In this document: in pieces, positions 19,138-58,289 of the stretch
Layout: every line of letters begins with the position of its first letter
Numbering within the stretch: position 1 is the first letter of the stretch
Program-made: the position numbers and the translations under genes
Assembly (NCBI RefSeq): GCF_054482525.1
Contig: NZ_CM137006.1
Length of the DNA: 64,000 bases
Strand: one strand, 5' to 3'
Notes under the pieces: generated by a model
The model's input: only the letters and a program-made list of their open reading frames with translations
Told to the model about the DNA's origin: nothing
Database searches by the model: none

Positions 19138-19850
19138 AATAAATATCCTCCGGCATAGCCGGAGGTTTTTCAAATGCGCCTATAAGGCTCTCTTACCAGC
19201 CGCGCCCTAACAGGCGCACACGATCTGACATTTGCATCCAACTTCGTTACTTACGGCCCGTAAACGGGCTGCCCGGATAGGGAATCGATAACTGCTCTCC
19301 CATTTTATCCTCTTCAAGCTGGTGCTTTATGTAATCCTGTATCTTCGCCGTGTTCTTACCCACCGTATCGACGTAGTACCCTCTGCACCAGAACTCCCTG
19401 TTCCTGTATTTGAATTTCAAATCACCAAACTGCTCGTAAAGCATCAGACTGCTTTTCCCTTTCAGATATCCCATAAAGCCGGATACGCTCATTTTGGGCG
19501 GGATCTCCACAAGCATATGGATATGATCTGCACAGCATTCAGCTTCCAGAATCCGTACACTTTTCCACTCACACAGCTTTCTCAAAATACTGCCTATTGC
19601 TCTACGCTTCTCTCTGTAGAACACCTGTCTTCGGTATTTTGGCGCAAAAACTATGTGATATTTACAGTTCCATCGGGTGTGCGCTAAGCTCTTTTCGTTC
19701 CCCATTGGGACCCCCTTTTGATTTCTTGTTTGACACTTGCAGTTGCCAGACCGCAAGGTGTTTTAACAAATCAAAAGGGGTTTTAATAACTGGCTTAAAG
19801 CTGAAAGCTTTCCGGAACCCCCAGCCTAGCTGGGGGTTTTCTGTGCACAA
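19138..19850 (-). mobile_element. IS200-family insertion sequence (IS200/IS605 group), copy 1, 713 bp
   Basis: 713 bp repeated identically at 55973..56685 with unrelated flanks on both sides; carries a single Y1/HUH transposase gene; subterminal hairpins cctccggcatagccggagg (19147-19165) and ccccagcctagctgggg (19818-19834). Confidence 0.9.
19247..19705 (-). CDS. tnpA: IS200-type Y1 (HUH) transposase TnpA
   Basis: MGNEKSLAHTRWNCKYHIVFAPKYRRQVFY...ADHIHMLVEIPPKMSVS...; 152 aa from internal Met of supplied ORF 19247..19756; HUH motif HIHML. Confidence 0.9.
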   Translation of the reverse strand: MGNEKSLAHTRWNCKYHIVFAPKYRRQVFYREKRRAIGSILRKLCEWKSVRILEAECCADHIHMLVEIPPKMSVSGFMGYLKGKSSLMLYEQFGDLKFKYRNREFWCRGYYVDTVGKNTAKIQDYIKHQLEEDKMGEQLSIPYPGSPFTGRK

Positions 19851-43935: not shown

Positions 43936-44880
43936 ATGAGTCCTGATAATATCAGTTCTGCTGTCAATCGCTTCTCAGGTTGGCCATCTAATAATCCTCT
44001 AAAAACAGATAACGAATCAATGACATCACCCATGACTGTGCAGGTAATAAAGATGATTGCCGCCATCCTTGACCCACATCGAATAGTCGTTGGAATCGAT
44101 ACACTTTATACAACGCAGCGCGAAACATTTACCTCAGAGAGTCAACAGCTCATTGAATCAGCATTGCAAACACTTCATGTGATGAATTTAAATAACCTGG
44201 AAACAAATCTCGATGAGGAAGGTCACTATCTGGCTTTTGGATATAACGTTGACACTCCTGACAGAATAACCGTTTCTGCTTATAATGAAAAAAAGCCTGG
44301 CTGCTATGGCCAATGTCTTTTAATACAGGATGACGAAACAGACTTATTTAACCTGATAAAAGTTAAAATTTATGAAGCCAGGCATAATTATGTCGCTCAA
44401 TTGATGAGCGATCCGGAATTTATGTTCAAATTTAGTTATAGCGCTCAACAAAATAGATTAGAACCTCATCTTCTGGTTCCCACTTATTTCCCTCTAAAAA
44501 CAAACGAACCGGTTACGCCAGAGGATGTACTGTTACTTTATCGTTTCTTTAAAATGGATGGTGATTTTAATATATTAACATCAGATGAATACATGAGTAT
44601 CATGACACCTCTGATGAAGTGTGAGCGCAGCATCCACGACCACAACAGGTATGTGACGGGCAAAGATACCCTTCTTCTGGACTATCCTCCTTCTGGTAAC
44701 CAGATATATTTCCATATTTTTCCTGACGAATCAGCAACACTAGTCCTTTATTTTTCAAACAATGACATTGAATGTTTCGTCTTTGAAAGAGATATTCCGA
44801 GCCAGTATCGCTTTTTCAAAATGTTTACCAATCTGGCACTGGTTATTGATCAGTTAACCGATGCCAATCAAATACTTTAA
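43936..44880 (+). CDS. Hypothetical protein, 314 aa, AT-rich gene, no family recognised
   Basis: Intact ORF with SD-like gagg upstream; codon usage and GC clearly lower than flanking genes; Ser/Pro/Asn/Thr-rich N-terminus without hydrophobic signal peptide. Confidence 0.7.
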   Translation: MSPDNISSAVNRFSGWPSNNPLKTDNESMTSPMTVQVIKMIAAILDPHRIVVGIDTLYTTQRETFTSESQQLIESALQTLHVMNLNNLETNLDEEGHYLAFGYNVDTPDRITVSAYNEKKPGCYGQCLLIQDDETDLFNLIKVKIYEARHNYVAQLMSDPEFMFKFSYSAQQNRLEPHLLVPTYFPLKTNEPVTPEDVLLLYRFFKMDGDFNILTSDEYMSIMTPLMKCERSIHDHNRYVTGKDTLLLDYPPSGNQIYFHIFPDESATLVLYFSNNDIECFVFERDIPSQYRFFKMFTNLALVIDQLTDANQIL

Positions 44881-44960
44881 TTTTTATATATCCCCTGTGG
44901 CAAATATTGCTAAACAATGCCCGGGGATTAATTTTTATTACTCACGGAAAGATTTAAATA

Positions 44961-45383
44961 ATGATCCCATCTCAAATCTCTTTCAACACCCTTCCTGTCA
45001 ATGCAACATACGCTTCAGAGACAACAGTTGACACACAAAAATTCTCTGACATCCTCTACTCAGCGGGGTGTTCCCTAAAGGATCTGGCTTATCTGAGCAG
45101 ATGTCTGGCATCAATACATCCGACTATCGCCAAAAACATTTATGAAACAGAAAATCTCAGCGATCAAAAATTACTGCATATTGATTTCCGTAGTACAAAT
45201 GAAATCAAGATAAATATCTTTTTTGGTCAACAACGAGAAGGATTAATTGAAATTAATTCTGACACTGTCATTTTTCCGATATTGTCTTCATTAATTGACT
45301 CCGCCATTTCTAAATTTCAACACCAAATCCCCGTTAACGGTTCAGTAAATCCTGACCTATTGTATGAGGATTATACTGATTAA
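44961..45383 (+). CDS. Hypothetical protein, 140 aa, apparently acidic, AT-rich gene
   Basis: ORF 80 bp downstream of the 314-aa gene, same strand, same low-GC composition. Confidence 0.6.
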   Translation: MIPSQISFNTLPVNATYASETTVDTQKFSDILYSAGCSLKDLAYLSRCLASIHPTIAKNIYETENLSDQKLLHIDFRSTNEIKINIFFGQQREGLIEINSDTVIFPILSSLIDSAISKFQHQIPVNGSVNPDLLYEDYTD

Positions 45384-45930
45384 ATCCCTCCTGTCGCGAA
45401 AAATGGCCTGCGTTATTGCCAGACGTAATAAAACTTTTGATTAACGTTACTCGTACTGGTAGCACCTTCATGTACTTTTCTTTTTTACGAAAAATCAAAA
45501 GAGCTAACAAAGGTCATAATTCGCATGAATCATTAATTATTTGTTATTTTCAACATTATTTTTACATTAAGCAGAGATGAATTGCAGTGAAATTCGACTT
45601 AACTTTTATGAAATGCATTTACTCATAGCTAAAGCCACGTCACAAAAATGCAAATTAGAAGTTGATCACAATTATCTCAATACATCAAATCAAGTTAATT
45701 TTAAAAATTTAACATTCATGACATTAGTTGACATAACACACTGAATTAAAATGAGAATTTGAAAACACACTTTAAACAATCATTTCCCGAAAGACATTTT
45801 GAAAATAGATCAATTGCAACATTACGGTCAGATAAAGACACTCCTGTGATATTAAACCTGTGCCGTTATGAGCGGCCATAAATACGACGTGTGTAACTTA
45901 TTTTACTCTCTGTCTTACAAAGGATTACCC

Positions 45931-46380
45931 ATGAAGAAAGCAACACTTGTGATTGGCGTTATTGGCGCGGACTGCCATGCAGTAGGCAATAAAGTTCTGG
46001 ACCGCGTTTTTAGCAACCATGACTTCAGAGTTATTAATCTGGGCGTAATGGTCAGCCAGGACGAATATATTGATGCTGCCATTGAAACTGGTGCTGACGC
46101 GATTGTCGTCTCCTCTATCTATGGGCATGGCGATATCGATTGTCTGGGCATGCGCGAACGCTGCATCGAGCGTGGGCTGGGTAACATCCTGCTCTATGTG
46201 GGCGGTAACCTGGTGGTCGGAAAACATGACTTCGCTGACGTGGAAACCAAGTTCAAAGAGATGGGATTTGATCGCGTCTTTTCCCCAAGTCATGACTTAG
46301 AAGATGTTTGTCAGCTGATGGCCCACGATATCAACCAACGTCATGACGTTGATACTCGCATTCTTGAAGAGGCAATCTGA
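45931..46380 (+). CDS. Glutamate mutase S (sigma) component, B12-binding subunit of methylaspartate mutase
   Basis: ORF 45868..46380; start [21 protein letters not shown] at 45931 with SD aagga; DxHxxG cobalamin-binding motif (DCHAVG); ~149 aa, similar to clostridial GlmS/MutS. Confidence 0.88.
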
Positions 46381-47768
46381 TGCAAATCGTCTCTGTCGAT
46401 ATTGGATCGACGTGGACCAAAGCAGCCCTCTTCACCCGGGAGGGGGACGCGTTAACGTTGGTTAACCACGTTCTGACCCCAACCACCACCCATCATCTGG
46501 CGAAGGGGTTTTTCTCCAGCCTGGACCAGGTGTTAAACGTAGATAATGCCCTCCCCCTGTTAAACAGTGGTGAGGTTGCATTGAAGTATTCCTCCTCTGC
46601 CAAAGGTGGGCTGGCGGTTGCCGCAATGGGATTGGTGCCTTCTATCACCCTGGAAACCGCGAAAGTAACCGCTCACTCTGCGGGTGCTAAAATTGCGCAA
46701 TATTACGCCTACAAGCTGAACCGCCGTGATATCCAGGCACTGGAAGAAACGCAGCCCGATATTCTCTTGTTCACCGGCGGCACCGATGGCGGAGAAGAAA
46801 GCTACGGACTGAATAACGCCCGTGTGTTGGCAGAATCCAAACTCGACTGCGCCATTATTTATGCCGGAAACCGGGATATTCAGGACGAGGTGCAGGAGAT
46901 CCTCGGGCATAAAGACCTGACCATCGTCGACAACGTTCTGCCCGATCTTGACCATCCGAACCCTTTAGCTGCACGCCAGGCTATCTGCGACATATTCCTT
47001 AAACGCATCGTTAAAGGGAAAGGGTTGGATGTCATTGTTGATAAAACAGGCGAAGAACCAATGCCGACACCATGGACGGTCTTTGAACTGGTTAAGGCAA
47101 TCAGTAACGTCGATCACAGCTGGAAAGAGTTCATGCTGATCGACATGGGTGGCGCAACCACCGATGTCTATTCCGCCTGTGCCAACACGCTCTCGCCCGA
47201 CACCGTTTTACACGGCGTACCGGAACCCTTCGTGAAACGGACGGTGGAAGGCGATCTGGGAATGCGCGTCTCGGCAATGGTGGTTGGTGAAAGTGCGAAA
47301 GAGTTAGTCAATGTGAATTTTGCTCAGCAACCCGCACAGCTGGACGCTTTTTATCATTACCTCCGCCATCTAGTCGCTCATCCCGACTACTTACCCGCGA
47401 ATGCAGAAGAAAAATATTTCGATACCGTCCTGGCCGGACTGTGTGTGGGTTATGCCACCGAAAGACATGCGGGCACCAAAAAAGAGGTCTGCACCTGCGT
47501 CGGCAATGTCGATTTACAGATGGGACGTGACCTGACAACCGTGCGTAAAGTCGTTGGTTCCGGCGGATGGCTCTCGCGTGCCAGTCAGTTCGATATGCAT
47601 CACTGGTTGAAATACCGCGAGTTAAACGACGACGGTAAACGCATTCTCTTACCGACCGAATTTGAATATTACCGCGATTCCCGGGGGCTATTACCACTGC
47701 TGGCAAACGTCGCCAGAGTCGATCCACTGGCCGCCGCGCGCACCAGTATTCAATGCTTAACCCTATAA
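46380..47768 (+). CDS. Glutamate mutase L component (GlmL/MutL-like, ASKHA-fold putative reactivase/chaperone)
   Basis: 462 aa [18 protein letters not shown] (ASKHA phosphate-1-like motif); start overlaps S-subunit stop (ATGA); located between S and E genes as in Clostridium. Confidence 0.8.
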   Translation: MQIVSVDIGSTWTKAALFTREGDALTLVNHVLTPTTTHHLAKGFFSSLDQVLNVDNALPLLNSGEVALKYSSSAKGGLAVAAMGLVPSITLETAKVTAHSAGAKIAQYYAYKLNRRDIQALEETQPDILLFTGGTDGGEESYGLNNARVLAESKLDCAIIYAGNRDIQDEVQEILGHKDLTIVDNVLPDLDHPNPLAARQAICDIFLKRIVKGKGLDVIVDKTGEEPMPTPWTVFELVKAISNVDHSWKEFMLIDMGGATTDVYSACANTLSPDTVLHGVPEPFVKRTVEGDLGMRVSAMVVGESAKELVNVNFAQQPAQLDAFYHYLRHLVAHPDYLPANAEEKYFDTVLAGLCVGYATERHAGTKKEVCTCVGNVDLQMGRDLTTVRKVVGSGGWLSRASQFDMHHWLKYRELNDDGKRILLPTEFEYYRDSRGLLPLLANVARVDPLAAARTSIQCLTL

Positions 47769-47786
47769 CAATTAAGGCTGCAATCA

Positions 47787-49232
47787 ATGGAACTTCGAAA
47801 TAAGAAATTAACCCATGACGAATTCATGACCGAGCGGCAACAGGTACTGAAAACCTGGGAAACCGGCAAGGATGTTGAAAACTTTGAAGATGGCGTTAAA
47901 TACCAACAAACCATTCCGGAGCATAAACGCTTCTCTCTTGCCCTGCTGAAAGCAGACAAGGAAGGTAAAACTCTTAGCCAACCGCGCGCAGGCGTGGCGC
48001 TGATGGACGAACACATCGAACTACTGAAAACACTACAAGAAGAGTGCGATCTGCTGCCGAGCACCATCGATGCATATACCCGTCTGAATCGGTACGAAGA
48101 AGCGGCTGTAGGGATTAAAAAATCCATCGAAGCCGGAACCTCTAAACTGAACGGTTTACCGGTCGTTAACCATGGCGTCGCAGCTTGCCGTCGCCTCACC
48201 GAAACTCTGCAAAAACCGCTACAGATCCGCCACGGCACGCCAGATGCGCGTCTGCTGGCTGAAATCTCGATGGCCAGCGGCTTTACCAGTTATGAAGGCG
48301 GCGGCATTTCCTACAATATTCCGTATGCCAAGCGCGTAACGCTGGAAAAATCGATCCGCGACTGGCAGTACTGCGACCGTTTAATGGGGATGTATGAAGA
48401 ACACGGGATCCGCATCAACCGCGAACCGTTTGGCCCACTAACGGGTACGCTGATCCCGCCGTTTATCTCGCACTCTATCGCGATAATCGAAGGATTACTG
48501 GCGCTGGAACAGGGTGTGAAATCTATCACCGTTGGTTATGGACAGGTCGGCAGCCTTACGCAGGATGTCGCGGCGATCCAGTCTCTGCGTGAACTTGCAC
48601 ACGAATACTTTCAGAGCTATGGCTATACCGACTATGAATTAAGTACCGTATTTCACCAGTGGATGGGCGGCTTTCCGGAAGACGAATCGAAAGCGTTCGC
48701 CATTATCTCCTGGGGTGCAGCCGTCGCGGGGATGTCTGGTGCCACCAAAGTCATCACCAAAAGTCCGCACGAAGCCTGGGGCATCCCGACTGCCACTGCC
48801 AACATTCAGGGGCTGAAAGCCTCCCGCCAGATGCTCAACATGGTCAATGAGCAGAAATTCCCGCCGTGCCCTGCGGTTGAACTGGAAATTGAACTGATTA
48901 AGAGCGAGGTTCGCGCGGTACTCAATAAAGTGTTCGAATTGGGTAATGGTGATATTGCGCGCGGTACGGTGCTGGCATTTGAAGCGGGCGTACTGGATGT
49001 GCCGTTTGCACCAGCCGCGTGTAACGCGGGCAAAATTCTTCCTGTCCGTGATAACACCGGCGCGATACGCGTACTGGAAGCCGGAGCCGTTCCATTGCCA
49101 AAAGATATTCTCGACCTCCACCACGATTACGTTGCTGAACGCGCACGCTTTGAAGGACGCCAACCGACATTCCAGATGGTTGTAGATGACATCAATGCTG
49201 TATCCCACAGTAAATTAATAGGAAGACCATAA
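47787..49232 (+). CDS. Glutamate mutase E (epsilon) catalytic subunit, methylaspartate mutase
   Basis: 481 aa MELRNKKLTHDEFMTERQQVLKTWETGKDVE...; strong resemblance to remembered Clostridium cochlearium GlmE (MELKNKKWTDEEF...QPRAGVALLDEHI...HGTPDSRLLAEI...GGGISYNIPYAK). Confidence 0.9.
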   Translation: MELRNKKLTHDEFMTERQQVLKTWETGKDVENFEDGVKYQQTIPEHKRFSLALLKADKEGKTLSQPRAGVALMDEHIELLKTLQEECDLLPSTIDAYTRLNRYEEAAVGIKKSIEAGTSKLNGLPVVNHGVAACRRLTETLQKPLQIRHGTPDARLLAEISMASGFTSYEGGGISYNIPYAKRVTLEKSIRDWQYCDRLMGMYEEHGIRINREPFGPLTGTLIPPFISHSIAIIEGLLALEQGVKSITVGYGQVGSLTQDVAAIQSLRELAHEYFQSYGYTDYELSTVFHQWMGGFPEDESKAFAIISWGAAVAGMSGATKVITKSPHEAWGIPTATANIQGLKASRQMLNMVNEQKFPPCPAVELEIELIKSEVRAVLNKVFELGNGDIARGTVLAFEAGVLDVPFAPAACNAGKILPVRDNTGAIRVLEAGAVPLPKDILDLHHDYVAERARFEGRQPTFQMVVDDINAVSHSKLIGRP

Positions 49233-50473
49233 TGAAAATAAAACAGGCCCTGTTCACCGCTGGCTATTCCTCATTCTATTTCGATGACCAGCAGGCGATA
49301 AAAAACGGAGCGGGTCACGACGGCTTTTTTTATACCGGGGAGCCAGTAACACAGGGGTTTAACGCCGTACGTCAGGCCGGGGAGTGCGTATCGGTACAGT
49401 TGATTCTGGAAAACGGCGCGGTCGCCGTAGGTGACTGTGCTGCCGTACAGTATTCCGGGGCAGGTGGTCGCGATCCACTGTTCCTCGCGGAGCACTTTAT
49501 TCCGTTCCTCAACGACCATATCAAGCCATTACTGGTAGGCCGCGATGTGGATGCTTTCCTGCCGAATGCCCGTTTCTTCGACAAATTGCGTATTGACGGC
49601 AACTTGCTGCATACCGCCGTGCGCTACGGATTATCACAGGCGCTGCTTGATGCTACCGCGCTGGCAACCGGCCGTCTGAAAACTGAAGTGGTCTGTGATG
49701 AATGGCAGTTGCCACGCGTGGCGGAATCCATTCCATTATTTGGTCAGAGCGGCGACGATCGATATATCGCCGTCGATAAGATGATCCTTAAGGGCATCGA
49801 CGTGCTGCCCCATGCGCTGATTAATAACGTCGAAGAGAAACTGGGCTTTAAAGGTGAAAAACTGCGCGAATATGTCCGCTGGCTGTCGGATCGTATTCTG
49901 AGCAAGCGCACCAGCGCACGCTACCACCCTACCCTGCACATCGATGTATACGGCACTATCGGTCTGATCTTCGATATGGATCCGCTTCGCTGTGCGCAAT
50001 ACATCGCCAGCCTGGAAAAAGAAGCGCAAGGCCTGCCGCTCTACATTGAAGGGCCGGTCGATGCCGGTAACAAGCCCGATCAAATTCGCCTGCTGACCGC
50101 GATTACCAAAGAGCTGACGCGCCTCGGTTCCGGCGTGAAAATTGTGGCCGATGAATGGTGTAACACCTACCAGGATATTGTTGATTTCACCGATGCCGCC
50201 AGTTGCCACATGGTGCAAATCAAAACCCCGGATCTGGGCAGTATTCACAACATCGTCGATGCAGTTCTTTATTGCAACAGCCACAGCATGGAAGCGTACC
50301 AGGGCGGCACCTGCAATGAAACTGATGTCAGTGCCCGCACCTGTGTCCACGTCGCCCTTGCCGCTCGCCCCATACGTATGCTGGTAAAGCCAGGGATGGG
50401 CTTTGACGAAGGCCTCGATATCGTCTTCAACGAAATGAATCGTACTATCGCGCTGTTGCAGGCTAAGGATTAA
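49232..50473 (+). CDS. 3-methylaspartate ammonia-lyase (beta-methylaspartase)
   Basis: 413 aa MKIKQALFTAGYSSFYFDDQQAIKNGAGHDGFFYTGEP...CAAVQYSGAGGRDPLF...; enolase-superfamily MAL, close to remembered clostridial MAL; start overlaps glmE stop. Confidence 0.92.
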   Translation: MKIKQALFTAGYSSFYFDDQQAIKNGAGHDGFFYTGEPVTQGFNAVRQAGECVSVQLILENGAVAVGDCAAVQYSGAGGRDPLFLAEHFIPFLNDHIKPLLVGRDVDAFLPNARFFDKLRIDGNLLHTAVRYGLSQALLDATALATGRLKTEVVCDEWQLPRVAESIPLFGQSGDDRYIAVDKMILKGIDVLPHALINNVEEKLGFKGEKLREYVRWLSDRILSKRTSARYHPTLHIDVYGTIGLIFDMDPLRCAQYIASLEKEAQGLPLYIEGPVDAGNKPDQIRLLTAITKELTRLGSGVKIVADEWCNTYQDIVDFTDAASCHMVQIKTPDLGSIHNIVDAVLYCNSHSMEAYQGGTCNETDVSARTCVHVALAARPIRMLVKPGMGFDEGLDIVFNEMNRTIALLQAKD

Positions 50474-50476
50474 CAA

Positions 50477-51847
50477 ATGGCTCGTTCTTTTAAAGTCTTA
50501 TCGCCAACGGCAATCCTCGGGTATGGATTCCCGGAGGAGAGCTTCCGCAAAGCGATGGCAGAATCGCCCGATCTGATCGCCGTTGATGCTGGCTCTTCCG
50601 ATCCGGGTCCCCACTACCTCGGGGCGGGCAAACCGTTTACCGATCGCGCAGGGGTCAAGCGCGATCTACGCTATATGATCACCGCAGGCGTGCAAAATAA
50701 TATACCGGTGGTGATCGGAACGGCCGGCGGTTCTGGTGCCGCTCCACACCTGGAGTGGTGCCGAGAAATAATTCATGAGATTGCCCGGGAAGAGCACCTC
50801 TCGTTCTCGATGGCGCTGATCCCGGCAGACGTTGACAAAGCCATCGTCCACCAGGCGCTGGATAACGGCAAAATCACGGCGCTGGATTTTGTCCCGCCGT
50901 TAACCCACGACGCGATTGACGAAAGTACGTATATCGTCGCGCAAATGGGCATCGAACCCTTCCAGCAGGCGCTGAAAGAAGGCGCGCAAGTGGTGCTGGG
51001 CGGGCGCGCTTACGACCCGGCCTGCTTTGCTGCGCTACCGATCATGCAAGGCTTTGATGAAGGTCTGGCGCTGCATTGTGGGAAAATCCTTGAATGCGCG
51101 GCAATCGCCGCAACGCCCGGCTCAGGCTCTGACTGTGCGATGGGCATCATTGATGACAACGGCTTTACGCTGAAGACATTTAATCCGAAGCGTAAATTTA
51201 CCGAAACGTCAGCGGCTGCACACACACTGTATGAGAAATCCGATCCCTACTTCCTGCCAGGACCTGGCGGCGTGTTGAACCTGAAAGGCTGCACATTTAA
51301 AGCGGTCAATGACGGCGAAGTGTACGTCAGCGGTTCTAAGCATGAAGAAACGCCGTATGCCCTGAAACTGGAAGGTGCGCGACGGGTGGGCTTCCGCTGT
51401 CTGACCATCGCAGGAACGCGCGACCCGATCATGATCGCCGGGATCGATAAAATCATCGATGAAGTCAAAACCAGCGTTTCGCGTAACCTGTCGCTCGACG
51501 ATGACAGCATACGCATCAATTTCCACCTGTACGGCAAAAACGGGGTGATGGGCGACCATGAACCGATGCAAACTGCCGGGCATGAGCTGGGGATTGTCCT
51601 TGATGTAGTTGCACCGACCCAGGAAATTGCCAACAGCGTTTGCTCGCTGGTGCGCTCTACTATGCTGCACTACGGCTATGAAAACCGCATCGCTACCGCA
51701 GGCAACCTGGCGTTCCCATTCTCCCCTTCAGATATCCAGGGCGGGCCGGTATACGAATTTTCCATATATCACCTGATTGAAGCCAACGACGCTCTGCGTT
51801 TTGATTTCCATATTGAACAGGTGACGCCAGAAGGAGTTCAGGCATGA
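50477..51847 (+). CDS. Conserved protein of unknown function (possibly DUF1446 / AtuA-like family; assignment from memory, unverified)
   Basis: 456 aa ORF starting 4 nt after MAL stop; no recognisable catalytic motif. Confidence 0.75.
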   Translation: MARSFKVLSPTAILGYGFPEESFRKAMAESPDLIAVDAGSSDPGPHYLGAGKPFTDRAGVKRDLRYMITAGVQNNIPVVIGTAGGSGAAPHLEWCREIIHEIAREEHLSFSMALIPADVDKAIVHQALDNGKITALDFVPPLTHDAIDESTYIVAQMGIEPFQQALKEGAQVVLGGRAYDPACFAALPIMQGFDEGLALHCGKILECAAIAATPGSGSDCAMGIIDDNGFTLKTFNPKRKFTETSAAAHTLYEKSDPYFLPGPGGVLNLKGCTFKAVNDGEVYVSGSKHEETPYALKLEGARRVGFRCLTIAGTRDPIMIAGIDKIIDEVKTSVSRNLSLDDDSIRINFHLYGKNGVMGDHEPMQTAGHELGIVLDVVAPTQEIANSVCSLVRSTMLHYGYENRIATAGNLAFPFSPSDIQGGPVYEFSIYHLIEANDALRFDFHIEQVTPEGVQA

Positions 51848-52161
51848 AACAGTCAATTGTCTCACTGGCGCAAGTCATTCGTTCGAAAAATGCCGGACCT
51901 TACGAACTGGTTTTAGATATTTTATTTAAAACCAAAGAAAACTATGAGCGAGTTAAATCATCAGGGCAATTAACCCCAGAACTGATCGCGCGCTTATATC
52001 ATGTTGAACCTGACTTTATTCATCGTATTGTCTGGTTTGATCCTTCTAACGCAGTAAAAATCGTCATGCCACGAGATATTATCTCCGGGAATGTAGGTGA
52101 CAATGATGTCTATGGTGCACAGCAACATGCACCTTTATTAAATATGAGTTTCGATTTGTAA
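51844..52161 (+). CDS. Small conserved protein of unknown function (possibly DUF4387), partner of preceding gene
   Basis: 105 aa ORF whose ATG overlaps the stop of the preceding gene (ATGA), implying translational coupling. Confidence 0.7.
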   Translation: MKQSIVSLAQVIRSKNAGPYELVLDILFKTKENYERVKSSGQLTPELIARLYHVEPDFIHRIVWFDPSNAVKIVMPRDIISGNVGDNDVYGAQQHAPLLNMSFDL

Positions 52162-52321
52162 AAATCCGAACACTTTTAGCCAACTGACATCCCGTCACTT
52201 ATTGCAGTTCAACACTTCAGCTATTTGTAAGGTTGTAATAGCAGGTAGATGCCTGAATCTTTATTCGGGCATCTACTTCTCCTGATTCTGATTTATCGCC
52301 GTGCACCTGATGGAGGAAAAA

Positions 52322-53602
52322 ATGAAGAAAATAAGTTTAACCACGATGATTCTTTTGGCGCTGGTACTTGGAATGATTATCGGCGTAGTGCTCAATAACA
52401 CTGCTTCACCGGAAACAGCAAAACTCTATGCGCAAGAAATATCGATATTCACGACGATTTTCTTACGACTGATAAAAATGATTATCGCTCCGTTAGTGGT
52501 CTCTACCCTGGTGGTAGGTATAGCTAAAATGGGCGATGCCAAAGCCCTTGGTCGTATTTTTTCTAAAACACTCTTTTTATTTATTTGCGCCTCATTGCTG
52601 TCAATTGCCTTAGGCTTGATAACAGTAAATTTCTTCATGCCAGGCACAGGAATTAATTTTGTTGCACACGGTGCCGAAACCACCGGAGTGGTCGCGTCAG
52701 AACCCTTTACGCTAAAAGTATTTATTTCGCATGCTTTCCCCACCAGCATTGTCGATGCCATGGCGCACAATGAAATTTTGCAAATCGTGGTGTTCTCAAT
52801 TTTCCTCGGCTGTAGCCTGACGGCGATTGGTGAGAAAGGCAGCGCCATCGTTCACGCCTTAGATTCGCTGGCACATGCCATGTTAAAGCTCACTGGCTAC
52901 GTCATGCTCTTCGCTCCCCTGACCGTATTCGCTGCTATTTCAGCATTGATTGCTGAACGAGGACTGGCAGTTATGGTGAGCGCCGGGATCTTTATGGGTG
53001 AATTTTATTTCACCATGTTGTTACTTTGGGTGCTGCTTATCGGTCTGGCCATCGTTTATGTCGGCCCCTGCATCAGACGCCTGACCCGCGCCCTTTCGGA
53101 ACCCGCCCTGCTGGCATTTACCACATCCAGTTCTGAAGCGGCTTTTCCGGGAACGCTTGAAAAACTGGAGCAATTTGGCGTTTCCCCCAAAATTGCCAGC
53201 TTTGTCTTACCCATTGGCTACTCATTTAATCTCGTTGGATCAATGGCCTACTGCTCCTTCGCCACAGTTTTCATCGCCCAGGCCTGCAATATCCATTTAT
53301 CCATCGGTGAGCAAATCACCATGCTGTTGATCCTGATGTTGACCTCGAAAGGAATGGCTGGCGTACCACGCGCCTCAATGGTGGTTATCGCCGCCACGCT
53401 CAACCAGTTCAATATTCCGGAAGCGGGGCTGATCTTGCTGATGGGCGTTGATCCGTTCCTTGATATGGGGCGTTCAGCGACAAACGTCATGAGCAACGCA
53501 ATGGGCGCTGCGATGGTGAGTCGGTGGGAAGGCGAACATTTCGGCGAGGGCTGTCGGGGTAAAGCATTAAAACCCAATGAATCGAACGTTGCTCTGCCCT
53601 GA
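52322..53602 (+). CDS. Dicarboxylate/amino acid:cation symporter (GltP/DctA family)
   Basis: ORF 52301..53602; start MKKISLTTMILLALVLGMIIGVV at 52322 after SD ggagg; multi-pass hydrophobic protein resembling glutamate/aspartate or C4-dicarboxylate symporters. Confidence 0.85.
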   Translation: MKKISLTTMILLALVLGMIIGVVLNNTASPETAKLYAQEISIFTTIFLRLIKMIIAPLVVSTLVVGIAKMGDAKALGRIFSKTLFLFICASLLSIALGLITVNFFMPGTGINFVAHGAETTGVVASEPFTLKVFISHAFPTSIVDAMAHNEILQIVVFSIFLGCSLTAIGEKGSAIVHALDSLAHAMLKLTGYVMLFAPLTVFAAISALIAERGLAVMVSAGIFMGEFYFTMLLLWVLLIGLAIVYVGPCIRRLTRALSEPALLAFTTSSSEAAFPGTLEKLEQFGVSPKIASFVLPIGYSFNLVGSMAYCSFATVFIAQACNIHLSIGEQITMLLILMLTSKGMAGVPRASMVVIAATLNQFNIPEAGLILLMGVDPFLDMGRSATNVMSNAMGAAMVSRWEGEHFGEGCRGKALKPNESNVALP

Positions 53603-53709
53603 GGGGGATCTTAAGCAATCAGAAGCCAATGACTACGCATTTTTATAAGCCGGATCATGAAGTTAGACGGCAATTAAGTAACACTAACGTTTAAGGTGAA
53701 AAGTGAAAT

Positions 53710-55362
53710 ATGTCCAAACCATTTATCTGGCAAGAACCGTTTCTACAAAATAAAGACGGTACAGAATATACATTAATTAGCGATCAACATATTACAGTAA
53801 CGGAATTAGACGGCGAAGAAGTGATAAAAATCGCTCCTGAAGCATTAACGCTGCTTGCCCGGCAGGCATTTTATGAAGCCTCTTTTTTCTTACGTTCCGC
53901 TCATTTGCAACAGGTCGCCAGCATTTTTAACGATCCGCAGGCCAGCAGTAATGATAAATACGTTGCGTTGCAGTTATTACGTAATGCTGAAGTCTCAGCA
54001 AAAGGGGTATTACCCAACTGTCAGGATACCGGCACCGCAACTATTGTTGCCAGTAAAGGGCAACAGATATGGACCGGAGGTAACGACGCTGAAGCCTTAA
54101 GCAAAGGCATTTACACCACTTTCCAGGAAAATAATCTGCGCTTTTCACAAAATGCGCCGCTGGATATGTACACCGAAGTCAATACGCAAACCAATCTCCC
54201 GGCGCAGATTGATATCAGCGCTGTCGCTGGTGATGAGTACCATTTTCTCTGTGTTAATAAAGGGGGCGGCTCTGCCAATAAAGCCGCGCTTTATCAGGAA
54301 ACCAAATCCTTATTGCAACCAGAAAAACTGACCGCATTTTTAATCGAAAAAATGAAATCGCTGGGCACCGCTGCCTGCCCGCCTTACCACATCGCCTTTG
54401 TCGTCGGAGGGCTTTCAGCCGATCAAACCTTAAAAGTTGCCAAGCTGGCCTCTACGAAATATTACGACAATTTGCCCACCAGCGGAAACGAGCAGGGACA
54501 AGCATTCCGTGATATTGAGCTGGAAAAAGTGTTGCTCGAGGCCAGTCAGCAATTTGGTATTGGTGCGCAATTTGGGGGTAAATATTTCGCTCATGATATT
54601 CGCGTCATTCGTCTGCCGCGTCACGGTGGCTCTTGCCCGATAGCTATGGCGCTCTCCTGTTCTGCGGATCGCAATATCAAAGCAAAAATTAACAAGCACG
54701 GTATCTGGCTGGAAAAACTCGAACACAATCCTGGGCAATATATTCCAGCCTCACTACGGGAAGAAAATCACGCGCAACATGTACAACTGGATCTAAACCG
54801 TCCGTTGCGTGAAGTGATGCAGGATCTCGCCAGATTACCGGTAGGTACCCGCGTGTCGTTAAGTGGTCCCATCGTAGTGGCGCGCGATATCGCCCACGCC
54901 AAAATAAAAGTGCGGCTGGATAGCGGCGAACCGATGCCGGATTACCTGAAGCATCATATTGTCTATTACGCTGGCCCGGCGAAAACACCGGAGAACATGG
55001 CCTGCGGTTCACTGGGTCCAACCACGGGCGGTCGAATGGACGGTTATGTCGATACCTTCCAGGCTGCTGGCGGCAGTCTGGTAATGTTATCGAAAGGTAA
55101 CCGCAGCCAGCAGGTCACCGATGCCTGTCACAAACATGGCGGCTTCAATCTGGGAAGTATTGGCGGTGCAGCTGCGTTACTGGCGCAAGAATATGTCAAA
55201 AGTCTGCGTTGCCTGGAATACCCGGAGCTGGGTATGGAAGCGGTGTGGATGATGGAAGTGGAAAATTTACCCGCATTCATCCTGGTAGATGATAAAGGCA
55301 ATAATTTCTTTAGTCAGTTTGAGCAGCAACACCGCTGTGCCAGTTGCCCTGCGGGACATTAA
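53710..55362 (+). CDS. fumD: Class I (Fe-S) fumarate hydratase-like enzyme; likely mesaconase/fumarase FumD type
   Basis: 550 aa, collinear similarity to E. coli FumA/FumB ([74 protein letters not shown]); clustered with glutamate mutase and MAL. Confidence 0.85.
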
Positions 55363-55371
55363 GGAAAATGA

Positions 55372-55974
55372 ATGGAAGCGCGAATTTCAACTGAACGGCA
55401 TGTGCAGCACCAGCAAAAATTGAAGGAACAGGTCGATACGCGCGTCGCGGCGGCGATAGAGAAAAAAGGGATCTTGATTGTTTTCACCGGCAACGGCAAA
55501 GGGAAATCCACTGCCGCGTTTGGTACTGTGACGCGCGCGGTGGGTCATGGCAAAACGGTGGGGGTTGCGCAGTACATCAAGGGGCAATGGGACAACGGCG
55601 AATACAACCTTCTCCAGCCGCTGGGGGTTGAGTTTCATATTATGGGAACCGGTTTTACCTGGGAGACACAGAACCGGCAAGCGGATATCGACGCGGCGAA
55701 AGAGGTCTGGTCGGAAAGCAAACGGATGCTGGCTGACAAGCGTTACGACTTAGTGGTGCTTGATGAGCTGACCTATATGCTGGCTTACCATTATCTGGAC
55801 ACCGAAGAAGTGATCGCTTCTCTGCAAAACCGCCCGGCACAACAAAGTGTCATTGTCACCGGACGCGGTTGCCACAGTCAGATATTAAAAATGGCGGATA
55901 CGGTCAGCGAAATCCGCCCCGTCAAACATGCTTTTGATAACGGCATTCAGGCGCAGCCGGGTATCGACTGGTAA
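55372..55974 (+). CDS. Cob(I)alamin adenosyltransferase (CobA/BtuR family), cluster-associated
   Basis: 200 aa; P-loop VFTGNGKGKSTAAFG and ...WETQNRQADIDAA...DLVVLDELTYM...TGRGCH...VSEIRPVKHAF matching remembered E. coli BtuR. Confidence 0.88.
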   Translation: MEARISTERHVQHQQKLKEQVDTRVAAAIEKKGILIVFTGNGKGKSTAAFGTVTRAVGHGKTVGVAQYIKGQWDNGEYNLLQPLGVEFHIMGTGFTWETQNRQADIDAAKEVWSESKRMLADKRYDLVVLDELTYMLAYHYLDTEEVIASLQNRPAQQSVIVTGRGCHSQILKMADTVSEIRPVKHAFDNGIQAQPGIDW

Positions 55975-56685
55975 TAAATATCCTCCGGCATAGCCGGAGG
56001 TTTTTCAAATGCGCCTATAAGGCTCTCTTACCAGCCGCGCCCTAACAGGCGCACACGATCTGACATTTGCATCCAACTTCGTTACTTACGGCCCGTAAAC
56101 GGGCTGCCCGGATAGGGAATCGATAACTGCTCTCCCATTTTATCCTCTTCAAGCTGGTGCTTTATGTAATCCTGTATCTTCGCCGTGTTCTTACCCACCG
56201 TATCGACGTAGTACCCTCTGCACCAGAACTCCCTGTTCCTGTATTTGAATTTCAAATCACCAAACTGCTCGTAAAGCATCAGACTGCTTTTCCCTTTCAG
56301 ATATCCCATAAAGCCGGATACGCTCATTTTGGGCGGGATCTCCACAAGCATATGGATATGATCTGCACAGCATTCAGCTTCCAGAATCCGTACACTTTTC
56401 CACTCACACAGCTTTCTCAAAATACTGCCTATTGCTCTACGCTTCTCTCTGTAGAACACCTGTCTTCGGTATTTTGGCGCAAAAACTATGTGATATTTAC
56501 AGTTCCATCGGGTGTGCGCTAAGCTCTTTTCGTTCCCCATTGGGACCCCCTTTTGATTTCTTGTTTGACACTTGCAGTTGCCAGACCGCAAGGTGTTTTA
56601 ACAAATCAAAAGGGGTTTTAATAACTGGCTTAAAGCTGAAAGCTTTCCGGAACCCCCAGCCTAGCTGGGGGTTTTCTGTGCACAA
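55973..56685 (-). mobile_element. IS200-family insertion sequence, copy 2, 713 bp
   Basis: Identical by eye to 19138..19850 including transposase gene and both subterminal hairpins; begins within/at the TAA stop of the adenosyltransferase gene. Confidence 0.9.
56082..56540 (-). CDS. tnpA: IS200-type Y1 (HUH) transposase TnpA
   Basis: Protein identical to that of copy 1 (supplied ORFs 19247..19756 and 56082..56591 are identical). Confidence 0.9.
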   Translation of the reverse strand: MGNEKSLAHTRWNCKYHIVFAPKYRRQVFYREKRRAIGSILRKLCEWKSVRILEAECCADHIHMLVEIPPKMSVSGFMGYLKGKSSLMLYEQFGDLKFKYRNREFWCRGYYVDTVGKNTAKIQDYIKHQLEEDKMGEQLSIPYPGSPFTGRK

Positions 56686-56718
56686 TAACTGCGCCTGGCA
56701 TCCCGCCAGGCGCAGGTT

Positions 56719-57624
56719 TTACATCTCCTGCGGTACAACCGATTTCGCCAGCAACCATTCACGAAATTGCTGCAAGTGCGGTGAGTCAGACTTCTCTTCC
56801 TGCCACGTCATAATAAAACGATTACCGGTACGAATAGGCACATCACAGGGAATCACCATATCGCCACTATCCAAATCATGTTGAATAGCGAACCGTGGTA
56901 ACAGCGCCACGCCGAGATTAGAGCGCACGGCGGCAATCAGCATTGAAAGCAAATCGAAACGTGGTCCGTTGTTGACCAGCGGACTGCTAACGCCAGATAA
57001 GGCAAACCACTCTTCCCAGCCAGTAATACGGGTACTTTGATGCAGAAGTGGTAACTCTGTAAGCAGTTCTGCCACTGACAGTTTTTGATCGGACATTGCA
57101 AGCAAACTGCCGCTGCATACCGGCAAAATCTCCTCTTCAAAGAGATATTCTACTTCCGCCCAGGGCGCGCAAAAATTTTCGCGCATAATGACAGCATCGT
57201 ACTCCCGATTAAGAAAATCGCCGTTATTAGCTAAAGAGTGAATATTAACAATAATATCGGGATGTAACTTTGTGAATTCATGTAAATTTGGGATTAACCA
57301 GTGGGTACTAAACGTAGGATTCACGGCAAGTTCAATAACCTTAACTGTAGGTTGCCAGGTCATAATGGTATTGGTATCGCGTTCCAGCTTATTTAATGTT
57401 TCTTTTACTATCCCCAGGTAATACTTCCCTGCATCATTAAGAAAAATACGTTTTTTAGAGTGTGAAAATAACGGAGTATGTAAAAATTCCTCCAGCGCAC
57501 TCACTTGTCTGAATACTGCACTTTGGGTTAACGCTAACTCCTCTGCCGCTCTGGTATAACTTTCATGACGTGCGACGACCTCAAAAGTCACCAGCAGTTC
57601 CGTTTTAGGTATTTTTCCTCGCAT
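56719..57624 (-). CDS. LysR-type transcriptional regulator
   Basis: 301 aa; N-terminal HTH ...FEVVARHESYTRAAEELALTQSAVFRQVSALEEFL, C-terminal periplasmic-binding-protein-like effector domain. Confidence 0.85.
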   Translation of the reverse strand: MRGKIPKTELLVTFEVVARHESYTRAAEELALTQSAVFRQVSALEEFLHTPLFSHSKKRIFLNDAGKYYLGIVKETLNKLERDTNTIMTWQPTVKVIELAVNPTFSTHWLIPNLHEFTKLHPDIIVNIHSLANNGDFLNREYDAVIMRENFCAPWAEVEYLFEEEILPVCSGSLLAMSDQKLSVAELLTELPLLHQSTRITGWEEWFALSGVSSPLVNNGPRFDLLSMLIAAVRSNLGVALLPRFAIQHDLDSGDMVIPCDVPIRTGNRFIMTWQEEKSDSPHLQQFREWLLAKSVVPQEM

Positions 57625-58190
57625 AATGCCGTCCCTTAAAAATAGTTTAAACCATCAAAAATACATTACTTATTACGAAGTAATGGTAACCAAAGCAGCA
57701 ATAAATAATTTATAAGAATCATGATTGACATTTATAACCCAGTAAGCCTGGCGTGACAAATATCTTAATCAGATAATAATAATCCGAAAAGCACAGCGCC
57801 TTTCGAATTATCCGGAATCACATTAAGTGAAAATTATTAAATTGATATCATTTATCATATCTGTGGATATTATGATAAACAATCAACAAAGATTTTATTT
57901 TTGATTTATAGCATATCCCTCTAAGAATTTTTGCGATGCTGCAATATCCGGGGTAAAGACCCGATCCTGGCTGACAAATGGCACGACTTGACGATAAGCG
58001 GTGAACATCGCTTTTGTTGATTTACTTAACGCTACGGTCAAACGCTGGGAAGCCAGTGCATCAGGTAACGATTCGAAATTCGCCGTCGTTCTTATTCGTG
58101 GCTTGCGGTCGGTTGCGGCAATCCACAGTGGCTGTGGTCATGCAGTCAAGCCAGCGGTCAGATTTCGACCGTGGTTAACATTTAAGGCAT

Positions 58191-58214
58191 AAAAAAGGCC
58201 ATCATACGATGGCC
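58191..58214 (-). terminator. Rho-independent terminator of sucABCD
   Basis: On minus strand ggccatcgtatgatggcc hairpin followed by tttttt. Confidence 0.8.
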
Positions 58215-58289
58215 AACCATGTCGAAACCGACAGCCCTTCGCCATTCCTGTAGAGGGAAGCGGCGAGGGCTATTTCTTATTACAGATAT
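58191..58289 (-). ncRNA. sdhX: Putative 3-prime-UTR-derived sRNA SdhX (RybD) of the sdh-suc operon
   Basis: ~100 nt between sucD stop and the terminator hairpin; in E. coli this 3-prime UTR gives rise to SdhX; boundaries approximate. Confidence 0.5.

Follow-up and report, generated by a model that had tools for sequence, protein, structure and literature searches.

PduO of the pdu operon and EutT of the eut operon are pathway-dedicated adenosyltransferases. E. coli lacks the corrin-ring pathway, so that a mutase pathway in this species would depend on corrinoid uptake (B12 salvage). The closest described relatives of the gene analysed here, the island cobA, are Salmonella CobA and E. coli BtuR (structures 1G5R, 1G64 and 4HUT), which belong to the same Pfam and TIGRFAM family, have nearly the same length and are 66-68% identical to the island protein. 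The P-loop and the residues Phe91/Trp93, E128, R161 and H182 are common to these enzymes and island CobA, and the chemistry is presumably the same, with ATP and cob(I)alamin giving adenosylcobalamin (AdoCbl) and triphosphate. Unlike btuR, which lies in a yciK-btuR arrangement, the island gene stands at the end of a mutase operon and occurs in only about 21% of E. coli. Its product has an N-terminus four residues longer (MEAR...), carries Ser, Thr or Ala in place of Arg165 and falls in a separate clade. Its setting appears to follow the same genetic logic as that of PduO and EutT, in which one operon encodes an AdoCbl-dependent enzyme, its reactivating factor (here GlmL) and an adenosyltransferase for local activation and recycling of the cofactor. 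However, the protein families are unrelated, and the island has neither microcompartment genes nor a dedicated corrin reductase of the PduS kind.

The island, which encodes glutamate mutase, methylaspartase and mesaconase, is enriched in EHEC and other enterobacterial pathogens (PMC4682846). Kronen & Berg (2015, PLoS One 10:e0145098, PMC4682846) list 'CobA, cob(I)alamin adenosyltransferase' in the legend of their Fig. 5, together with a LysR regulator, GlsA and SumT, and this CobA is the product of the gene described here. FumD alone was characterised in that work, its O157:H7 orthologue being shown biochemically to be a mesaconase, and the paper contains no analysis of the adenosyltransferase, its relation to btuR or clade-specific substitutions. 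Our literature search found no report of island CobA activity or of complementation of a btuR/cobA mutant with it, and none on the gene later than Kronen & Berg; a search by the O157 locus tags ECs0756-0762 returned their paper alone. The island cobA is thus already known, being annotated in RefSeq and drawn in PMC4682846, and it follows the ordinary pattern of an adenosyltransferase encoded with a B12 enzyme. Here we add that it is a third adenosyltransferase, that it belongs to a constrained, island-bound clade in which Arg165 is absent, and that an IS200 element precedes the terminator in strain PCN033.

Identity of the island gene

The window, by which we mean the whole stretch of 64,000 nucleotides that was analysed, spans uvrB/bio, gal, tol-pal and cydAB up to sucABCD and is 100% identical to the chromosome of E. 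coli PCN033 (NZ_CP006632.1). In the ORF listing, the span 55372-55974 on the plus strand fits exactly an ATG-start ORF of 200 codons. The product matched PF02572 (CobA_CobO_BtuR) with an E value of 4.6e-64 and 216 bits (cutoff 25.7 bits), residues 31-200 aligning to positions 1-172 of the 172-position profile. PF02572 was the only Pfam family matched, and homology to PduO or EutT was not found. The scores against the TIGR00708 cobA equivalog (246.7 bits; cutoff 167.75) and NCBIfam NF004637 (294 bits; cutoff 185) also lie above their cutoffs, and the solved Salmonella CobA structures 1G5R/1G5T/1G64 and 4HUT match residues 6-200 without a gap (E 1.3e-87). The RefSeq entry for the 100% identical gene in PCN033 names it cobO, cob(I)yrinic acid a,c-diamide adenosyltransferase. 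By family membership, these matches confirm the predicted identity of the ORF as an intact CobA/BtuR/CobO-type ATP:co(I)rrinoid adenosyltransferase, in agreement with the initial annotation, which had read it as a second, cluster-linked enzyme of the BtuR/CobA type dedicated to glutamate mutase.

Relation to btuR and eutT

PCN033 has an intact core btuR of 196 aa elsewhere on its chromosome (NZ_CP006632.1, 1450462-1451052) in the context rluB / btuR-yciK / sohB, and K-12 has btuR in the same yciK-linked arrangement. Island CobA is 66-67% identical to the PCN033 BtuR protein and 67% identical to that of K-12. The island gene shows no synteny with yciK, rluB or sohB and is located between fumD and a LysR gene. 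A sensitive (distant) blastn search of complete E. coli genomes gave 6546 places in 5425 records; the core copy, about 69% identical at the nucleotide level, was present in 5422 of 5426 genomes, and each island-bearing genome (about 1121) had one further place. The possibility that a single btuR had been relocated into the island is ruled out by the intact yciK-btuR of PCN033 and by the two places in essentially all island-bearing genomes. The initial annotation had named this case as one that would refute its claim of an additional copy, and that claim stands. Its word 'second' applies to enzymes of the CobA type only, because eutT, which encodes an unrelated adenosyltransferase, is present in 5409 of 5426 complete E. 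coli genomes. Since EutT is nearly universal in the species, island CobA brings the number of corrinoid adenosyltransferases to three and that of CobA-type enzymes to two.

Operon organisation

The genes of the operon lie on one strand in the order glmS-glmL-glmE-mal-AtuA-DUF4387-gltP-fumD-cobA, with cobA as the last cistron (Table 1). Membership of cobA in the glutamate mutase cluster, as originally proposed, is borne out by the shared strand, the tight spacing and an order that is kept in at least five genera. Only 9 nt separate the fumD stop codon from the cobA ATG, and this short spacer suggests translational coupling. The Citrobacter fumD-cobA junction has an identical 9-nt spacer, with AAGGAG. 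The G+C content of the operon is about 50-55%, which is ordinary for E. coli. The translated GlmS carries the DxHxxG motif as DCHAVG, presumed to be the recipient site for AdoCbl, and a chaperone and reactivation role of GlmL is given in the legend of Fig. 4 in PMC4682846. No cobalamin riboswitch for the operon was found at the gathering score in the whole window or at E<=1 between 43.5 and 58.2 kb. A match to Ysr202 had 26 bits against a gathering score of 315 and was dismissed as chance.

Table 1. Features of the glutamate mutase operon and its 3' flank (positions in the window)
Feature	Coordinates	Strand	Basis
glmS, B12-binding S subunit of glutamate mutase	45931..46380	+	Pfam PF02310, DxHxxG motif, annotation
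glmL/mutL, glutamate mutase accessory (reactivating) protein	46380..47768	+	Pfam PF13941 MutL
glmE, glutamate (methylaspartate) mutase E subunit	47787..49232	+	Pfam PF06368, E 1.3e-214
mal, methylaspartate ammonia-lyase	49232..50473	+	Pfam MAAL_N, MAAL_C
AtuA/DUF1446-family protein	50477..51847	+	Pfam PF07287
DUF4387 protein	51844..52161	+	Pfam PF14330
gltP-like dicarboxylate/amino acid:cation symporter	52322..53602	+	Pfam SDF, annotation
fumD, class I fumarase/mesaconase	53710..55362	+	Pfam Fumerase, Fumerase_C; annotation
Shine-Dalgarno-like AAGGA, overlapping the fumD stop codon, 6 nt 5' of the cobA ATG	55361..55365	+	sequence
Island cobA ('cobA2'; RefSeq cobO, WP_000388201.1), CobA/BtuR-type ATP:co(I)rrinoid adenosyltransferase, 200 aa	55372..55974	+	ORF, Pfam, NCBIfam, 1G5R match, RefSeq, catalytic residues
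IS200C insertion, 711 bp, tnpA 56082-56540	55978..56688 (+/- ~5 nt)	-	alignment, Rfam STnc490 at 56550-56673, annotation
Native bidirectional terminator hairpin, operon and convergent LysR gene	56689..56715	.	terminator scan, alignment
LysR-type regulator, convergent with the operon	56719..57624	-	Pfam HTH_1, LysR_substrate; synteny

Two hypothetical ORFs (314 and 140 aa) are located at 43936-45383 between cydA and glmS. Their G+C content of 35-37% is unlike that of the operon, and a Pfam search with both gave no match to any family.

At the 3' end, the LysR gene adjoins cobA in every island version examined. The IS-free strains O157:H7 EC4115 and AST85 have a GC-rich hairpin and a T-run directly after the cobA stop codons. 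In PCN033, IS200C is inserted between these stop codons and the native terminator, and the cobA coding sequence is intact. The insertion is lineage-specific, as the alignment shows it to be absent at this site from both EC4115 and AST85. A hairpin at 55982-56000 was rejected as the operon terminator because alignment with the IS-free strains placed it within the IS200. A second IS200 is found near 19715-19838, between acrZ and modA, and both copies are full-length matches to Rfam STnc490. The interval between sucD and cydA is an alternative-content locus, which holds sdhX-mngR-mngA-mngB in K-12 and the mutase island with its LysR gene in PCN033 and O157 (45868-58289 of the window).

Distribution and linkage

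Counted at 95% nucleotide identity or higher, the island cobA was present in 1121 of 5426 complete E. coli genomes (~21%). The 10.1-kb operon was found in 1117 of the same 5426 genomes at 80% coverage or more and at least partly in 1135, so that cobA and the operon correspond nearly one-to-one (1121 vs 1117-1135). Kronen & Berg (2015, PMC4682846) gave the cluster as present in 26.5% of E. coli strains and 90.6% of O157:H7 strains. Among the records classed as plasmids, our search of E. coli genomes returned one match to the island cobA and two to the operon.

For relatives, one genome per species was scanned, which gave 80 loci, and all island proteins were then compared with these loci by tblastn. 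All 13 loci with a CobA 82-85% identical to that of the island carry glmL-glmE-mal-AtuA-DUF4387-gltP-fumD-cobA and a convergent LysR gene in the same order, often beside sucD; they belong to Citrobacter spp., a Raoultella MAG, Lelliottia and Buttiauxella. Island genes were absent from every core btuR locus at 65-70% identity (0 of 67). Nine genomes appear in both sets of loci, which means that they hold both copies. The same block is present in Salmonella enterica. Between gltP and fumD, the island versions of Salmonella and Citrobacter include a gene for a glutaminase. In Salmonella, the stretch from the LysR gene to sucD additionally contains genes for a uroporphyrinogen methyltransferase (TP_methylase), an AraC-type regulator with a PocR domain and an Asp/Glu racemase. 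These extra genes indicate that in B12 producers the island is linked to further corrin-related genes, which the E. coli island does not have.

Seven distant lineages, with GlmE of 40-60% identity, showed neither a CobA-type nor a PduO-type gene near the mutase genes, on contigs of which four are only about 7 kb long. The closest of these lineages (GlmE 60%) has glmS-glmL-glmE-mal-AtuA-DUF4387 followed by unrelated genes, with neither fumD nor cobA. Since the sampled distant clusters showed no adenosyltransferase and the 60% lineage lacks the fumD-cobA pair, comparison of the gene orders suggests that fumD-cobA is an enterobacterial addition to an older mutase module.

The island clade and its residues

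A neighbour-joining tree was built from 14 island and 70 core sequences; its midpoint root is provisional because the tree contains no outgroup. At this root the 70 core sequences part from the 14 island copies, which make up a single clade, and neither the tree nor the identities group island CobA with the core BtuR of Enterobacterales. Identity is 81.5-99.5% among island copies, 68-99% among core enzymes and 63-73% between the island copies and every core BtuR. E. coli BtuR is about 87-90% identical to the core BtuR of other Enterobacteriaceae genera. A recent duplication of E. coli btuR is ruled out, because the island protein is 66-67% identical to the BtuR of that species and about equally distant from all core BtuR of Enterobacterales. 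The distinct clade and its distance from all core enzymes indicate that island cobA is an old lineage of its own that moves together with the island.

The dN/dS ratio was 0.036-0.057 between E. coli alleles and 0.02-0.07 between genera, with synonymous sites saturated across the genera compared. All 16 copies examined were intact, with 200 codons. These values indicate that island cobA is under strong purifying selection.

Across the 84 sequences, 78 alignment columns are invariant. These include R51, F91, W93, E128, R161 and H182 (Salmonella numbering), and the P-loop residues G36-K41 and T43 are invariant or nearly so. In the island protein the P-loop is GNGKGKST at residues 40-47, which fits the ATP-binding pattern GNGKGK[ST]T; at position 42, island copies have Ser, whereas most core sequences have Thr. 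Island F95 and W97 align to Salmonella Phe91 and Trp93, which generate four-coordinate cob(II)alamin according to the title of Moore et al. (2012), as cited in PMC5282855.

Eight positions fully separate the island copies from the 70 core sequences: R28K, P70D, R/K74Y, V86I, A/G112S, L140T/I, R165S/T/A and D166Q/L. P70D and R74Y flank the invariant residues W69, N71, G72 and E73. Position 165 is Arg in 70 of 70 core sequences and Ser, Thr or Ala in all 14 island copies. The equivalent of Arg9 is Arg13 in 13 of the 14 island copies and His13 in PCN033. Arg9 and Arg165 of Salmonella CobA are said to have been found by Buan and Escalante-Semerena in 2005 to be needed for flavodoxin-dependent adenosylation and not for catalysis. 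If they are flavodoxin-docking residues, the island lineage is without one of the two docking arginines. His13 was rejected as a feature of the clade, as Arg is present in O157 and AST85. The allele is rare: at most 3 of the 1121 E. coli genomes have exactly the same 80-nt stretch around its codon (55408-55410).

Discussion

Our data suggest that island CobA is probably a functional CobA-type enzyme, which as the last cistron of the operon would supply or regenerate AdoCbl for glutamate mutase. Family, catalytic residues, the extra copy, operon position, linkage and purifying selection are the observations from which we infer its activity, its use of an electron donor and the mutase as its client. 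A possible client is at hand in the operon, which encodes GlmS with its B12-binding domain and DxHxxG motif and, next to it, GlmL. In the pathway that we propose, island CobA (EC 2.5.1.17) would be transcribed and translated with the glutamate mutase/methylaspartate operon. Upon induction of the operon, cob(II)alamin would bind to the enzyme, which would bring it into a four-coordinate state via Phe95 and Trp97. One-electron reduction would then give cob(I)alamin, and the 5'-deoxyadenosyl group of ATP would be transferred to the cobalt. The AdoCbl made or regenerated in this way could be loaded on GlmS/GlmE. GlmL, the reactivating protein, may release cofactor damaged during turnover, which would be re-adenosylated locally by island CobA. 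The earlier idea of a dedicated enzyme with coupled cofactor activation is thus supported as a reasonable reading of the genomic evidence.

Some observations weigh against such a coupled role. Strains with island CobA also have BtuR and EutT, which could in principle provide AdoCbl, and no cobalamin riboswitch ties the operon to B12 sensing. No adenosyltransferase was seen near the mutase genes in the seven distant clusters sampled, several of them on short contigs, so that the mutase does not generally require a linked one. In addition, overexpression of btuR alone alters cobamide use in E. coli, so that dosage effects of this enzyme class are real (PMC10802341). Island CobA might accordingly be a redundant passenger, an active enzyme with no role specific to the mutase, which raises general AdoCbl capacity or is kept within a co-inherited block. 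We regard this as unlikely, because some lineages would then be expected to have lost the gene or let it decay, yet the counts of cobA and operon in E. coli are about equal, and the frame is unbroken across genera with dN/dS of 0.02-0.07 at saturated synonymous sites. Moreover, every island version keeps cobA directly after fumD, and the 9-nt junction is the same in Citrobacter. That the ORF encodes a P-loop protein other than an adenosyltransferase, or is a pseudogene, has next to no probability, as its score exceeds the equivalog cutoff, its identity to a characterised CobA of solved structure is about 68%, all catalytic positions are kept and the purifying selection on it is strong.

The differences between the clades allow another reading, in which the island enzymes are adapted to another electron donor or another corrinoid, or to passing AdoCbl directly to GlmS. 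Such specialisation would account for the retention of a separate lineage alongside BtuR, and it fits the eight fully separating positions, Arg165 in 0 of 14 island copies, the reported flavodoxin role of Arg9 and Arg165, and the placement of P70D and R74Y next to invariant residues. However, any old paralogue can be expected to have substitutions peculiar to its clade, nearly all island copies retain the equivalent of Arg9, and the E. coli island encodes no partner reductase; the reading draws on a sequence pattern together with the role ascribed to Arg9 and Arg165, and we consider it very improbable. The narrower idea that loss of Arg165, with the changes at P70, R74 and D166, removes the need for FldA docking, so that another donor is used or AdoCbl passes straight to GlmS/GlmL, is quite doubtful. 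If it were true, island CobA would be the first CobA-family enzyme dedicated to a single mutase. The distinct clade and its replaced Arg165 offer a small handle on how CobA-type enzymes choose their reductant.

On the preferred reading, supply or regeneration of AdoCbl for the mutase, the presence of cobA in the operon would make the block self-sufficient for cofactor activation once corrinoid is available. In O157:H7 ATCC 700728, methylaspartase activity and glutamate-dependent growth were not detected under any condition, with or without CN-, HO- or Ado-cobalamin, and no conditions were found for expression of the cluster genes (Kronen & Berg, PMC4682846), a negative result that counts against this reading. 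For switching the pathway on, any form of cobalamin should be usable, and btuR mutants alone would be insufficient to rely on. The current understanding of B12 metabolism is unchanged by island cobA.

The pair of AtuA/DUF1446 and DUF4387 genes (50477-52161) follows mal in every enterobacterial island version and also occurs in the 60% GlmE cluster. Because that cluster lacks fumD and cobA, the pair belongs to the core glutamate mutase module, and its products might carry out the step that is missing downstream of mesaconate or citramalate. In some distant clusters, Met_asp_mut_E genes stand side by side in twos or threes, accompanied by genes for CoA-transferase and acyl-CoA dehydrogenase, and many distant Met_asp_mut_E representatives are fusion forms of 620-680 aa. 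These distant mutase homologues may act in pathways besides glutamate fermentation.
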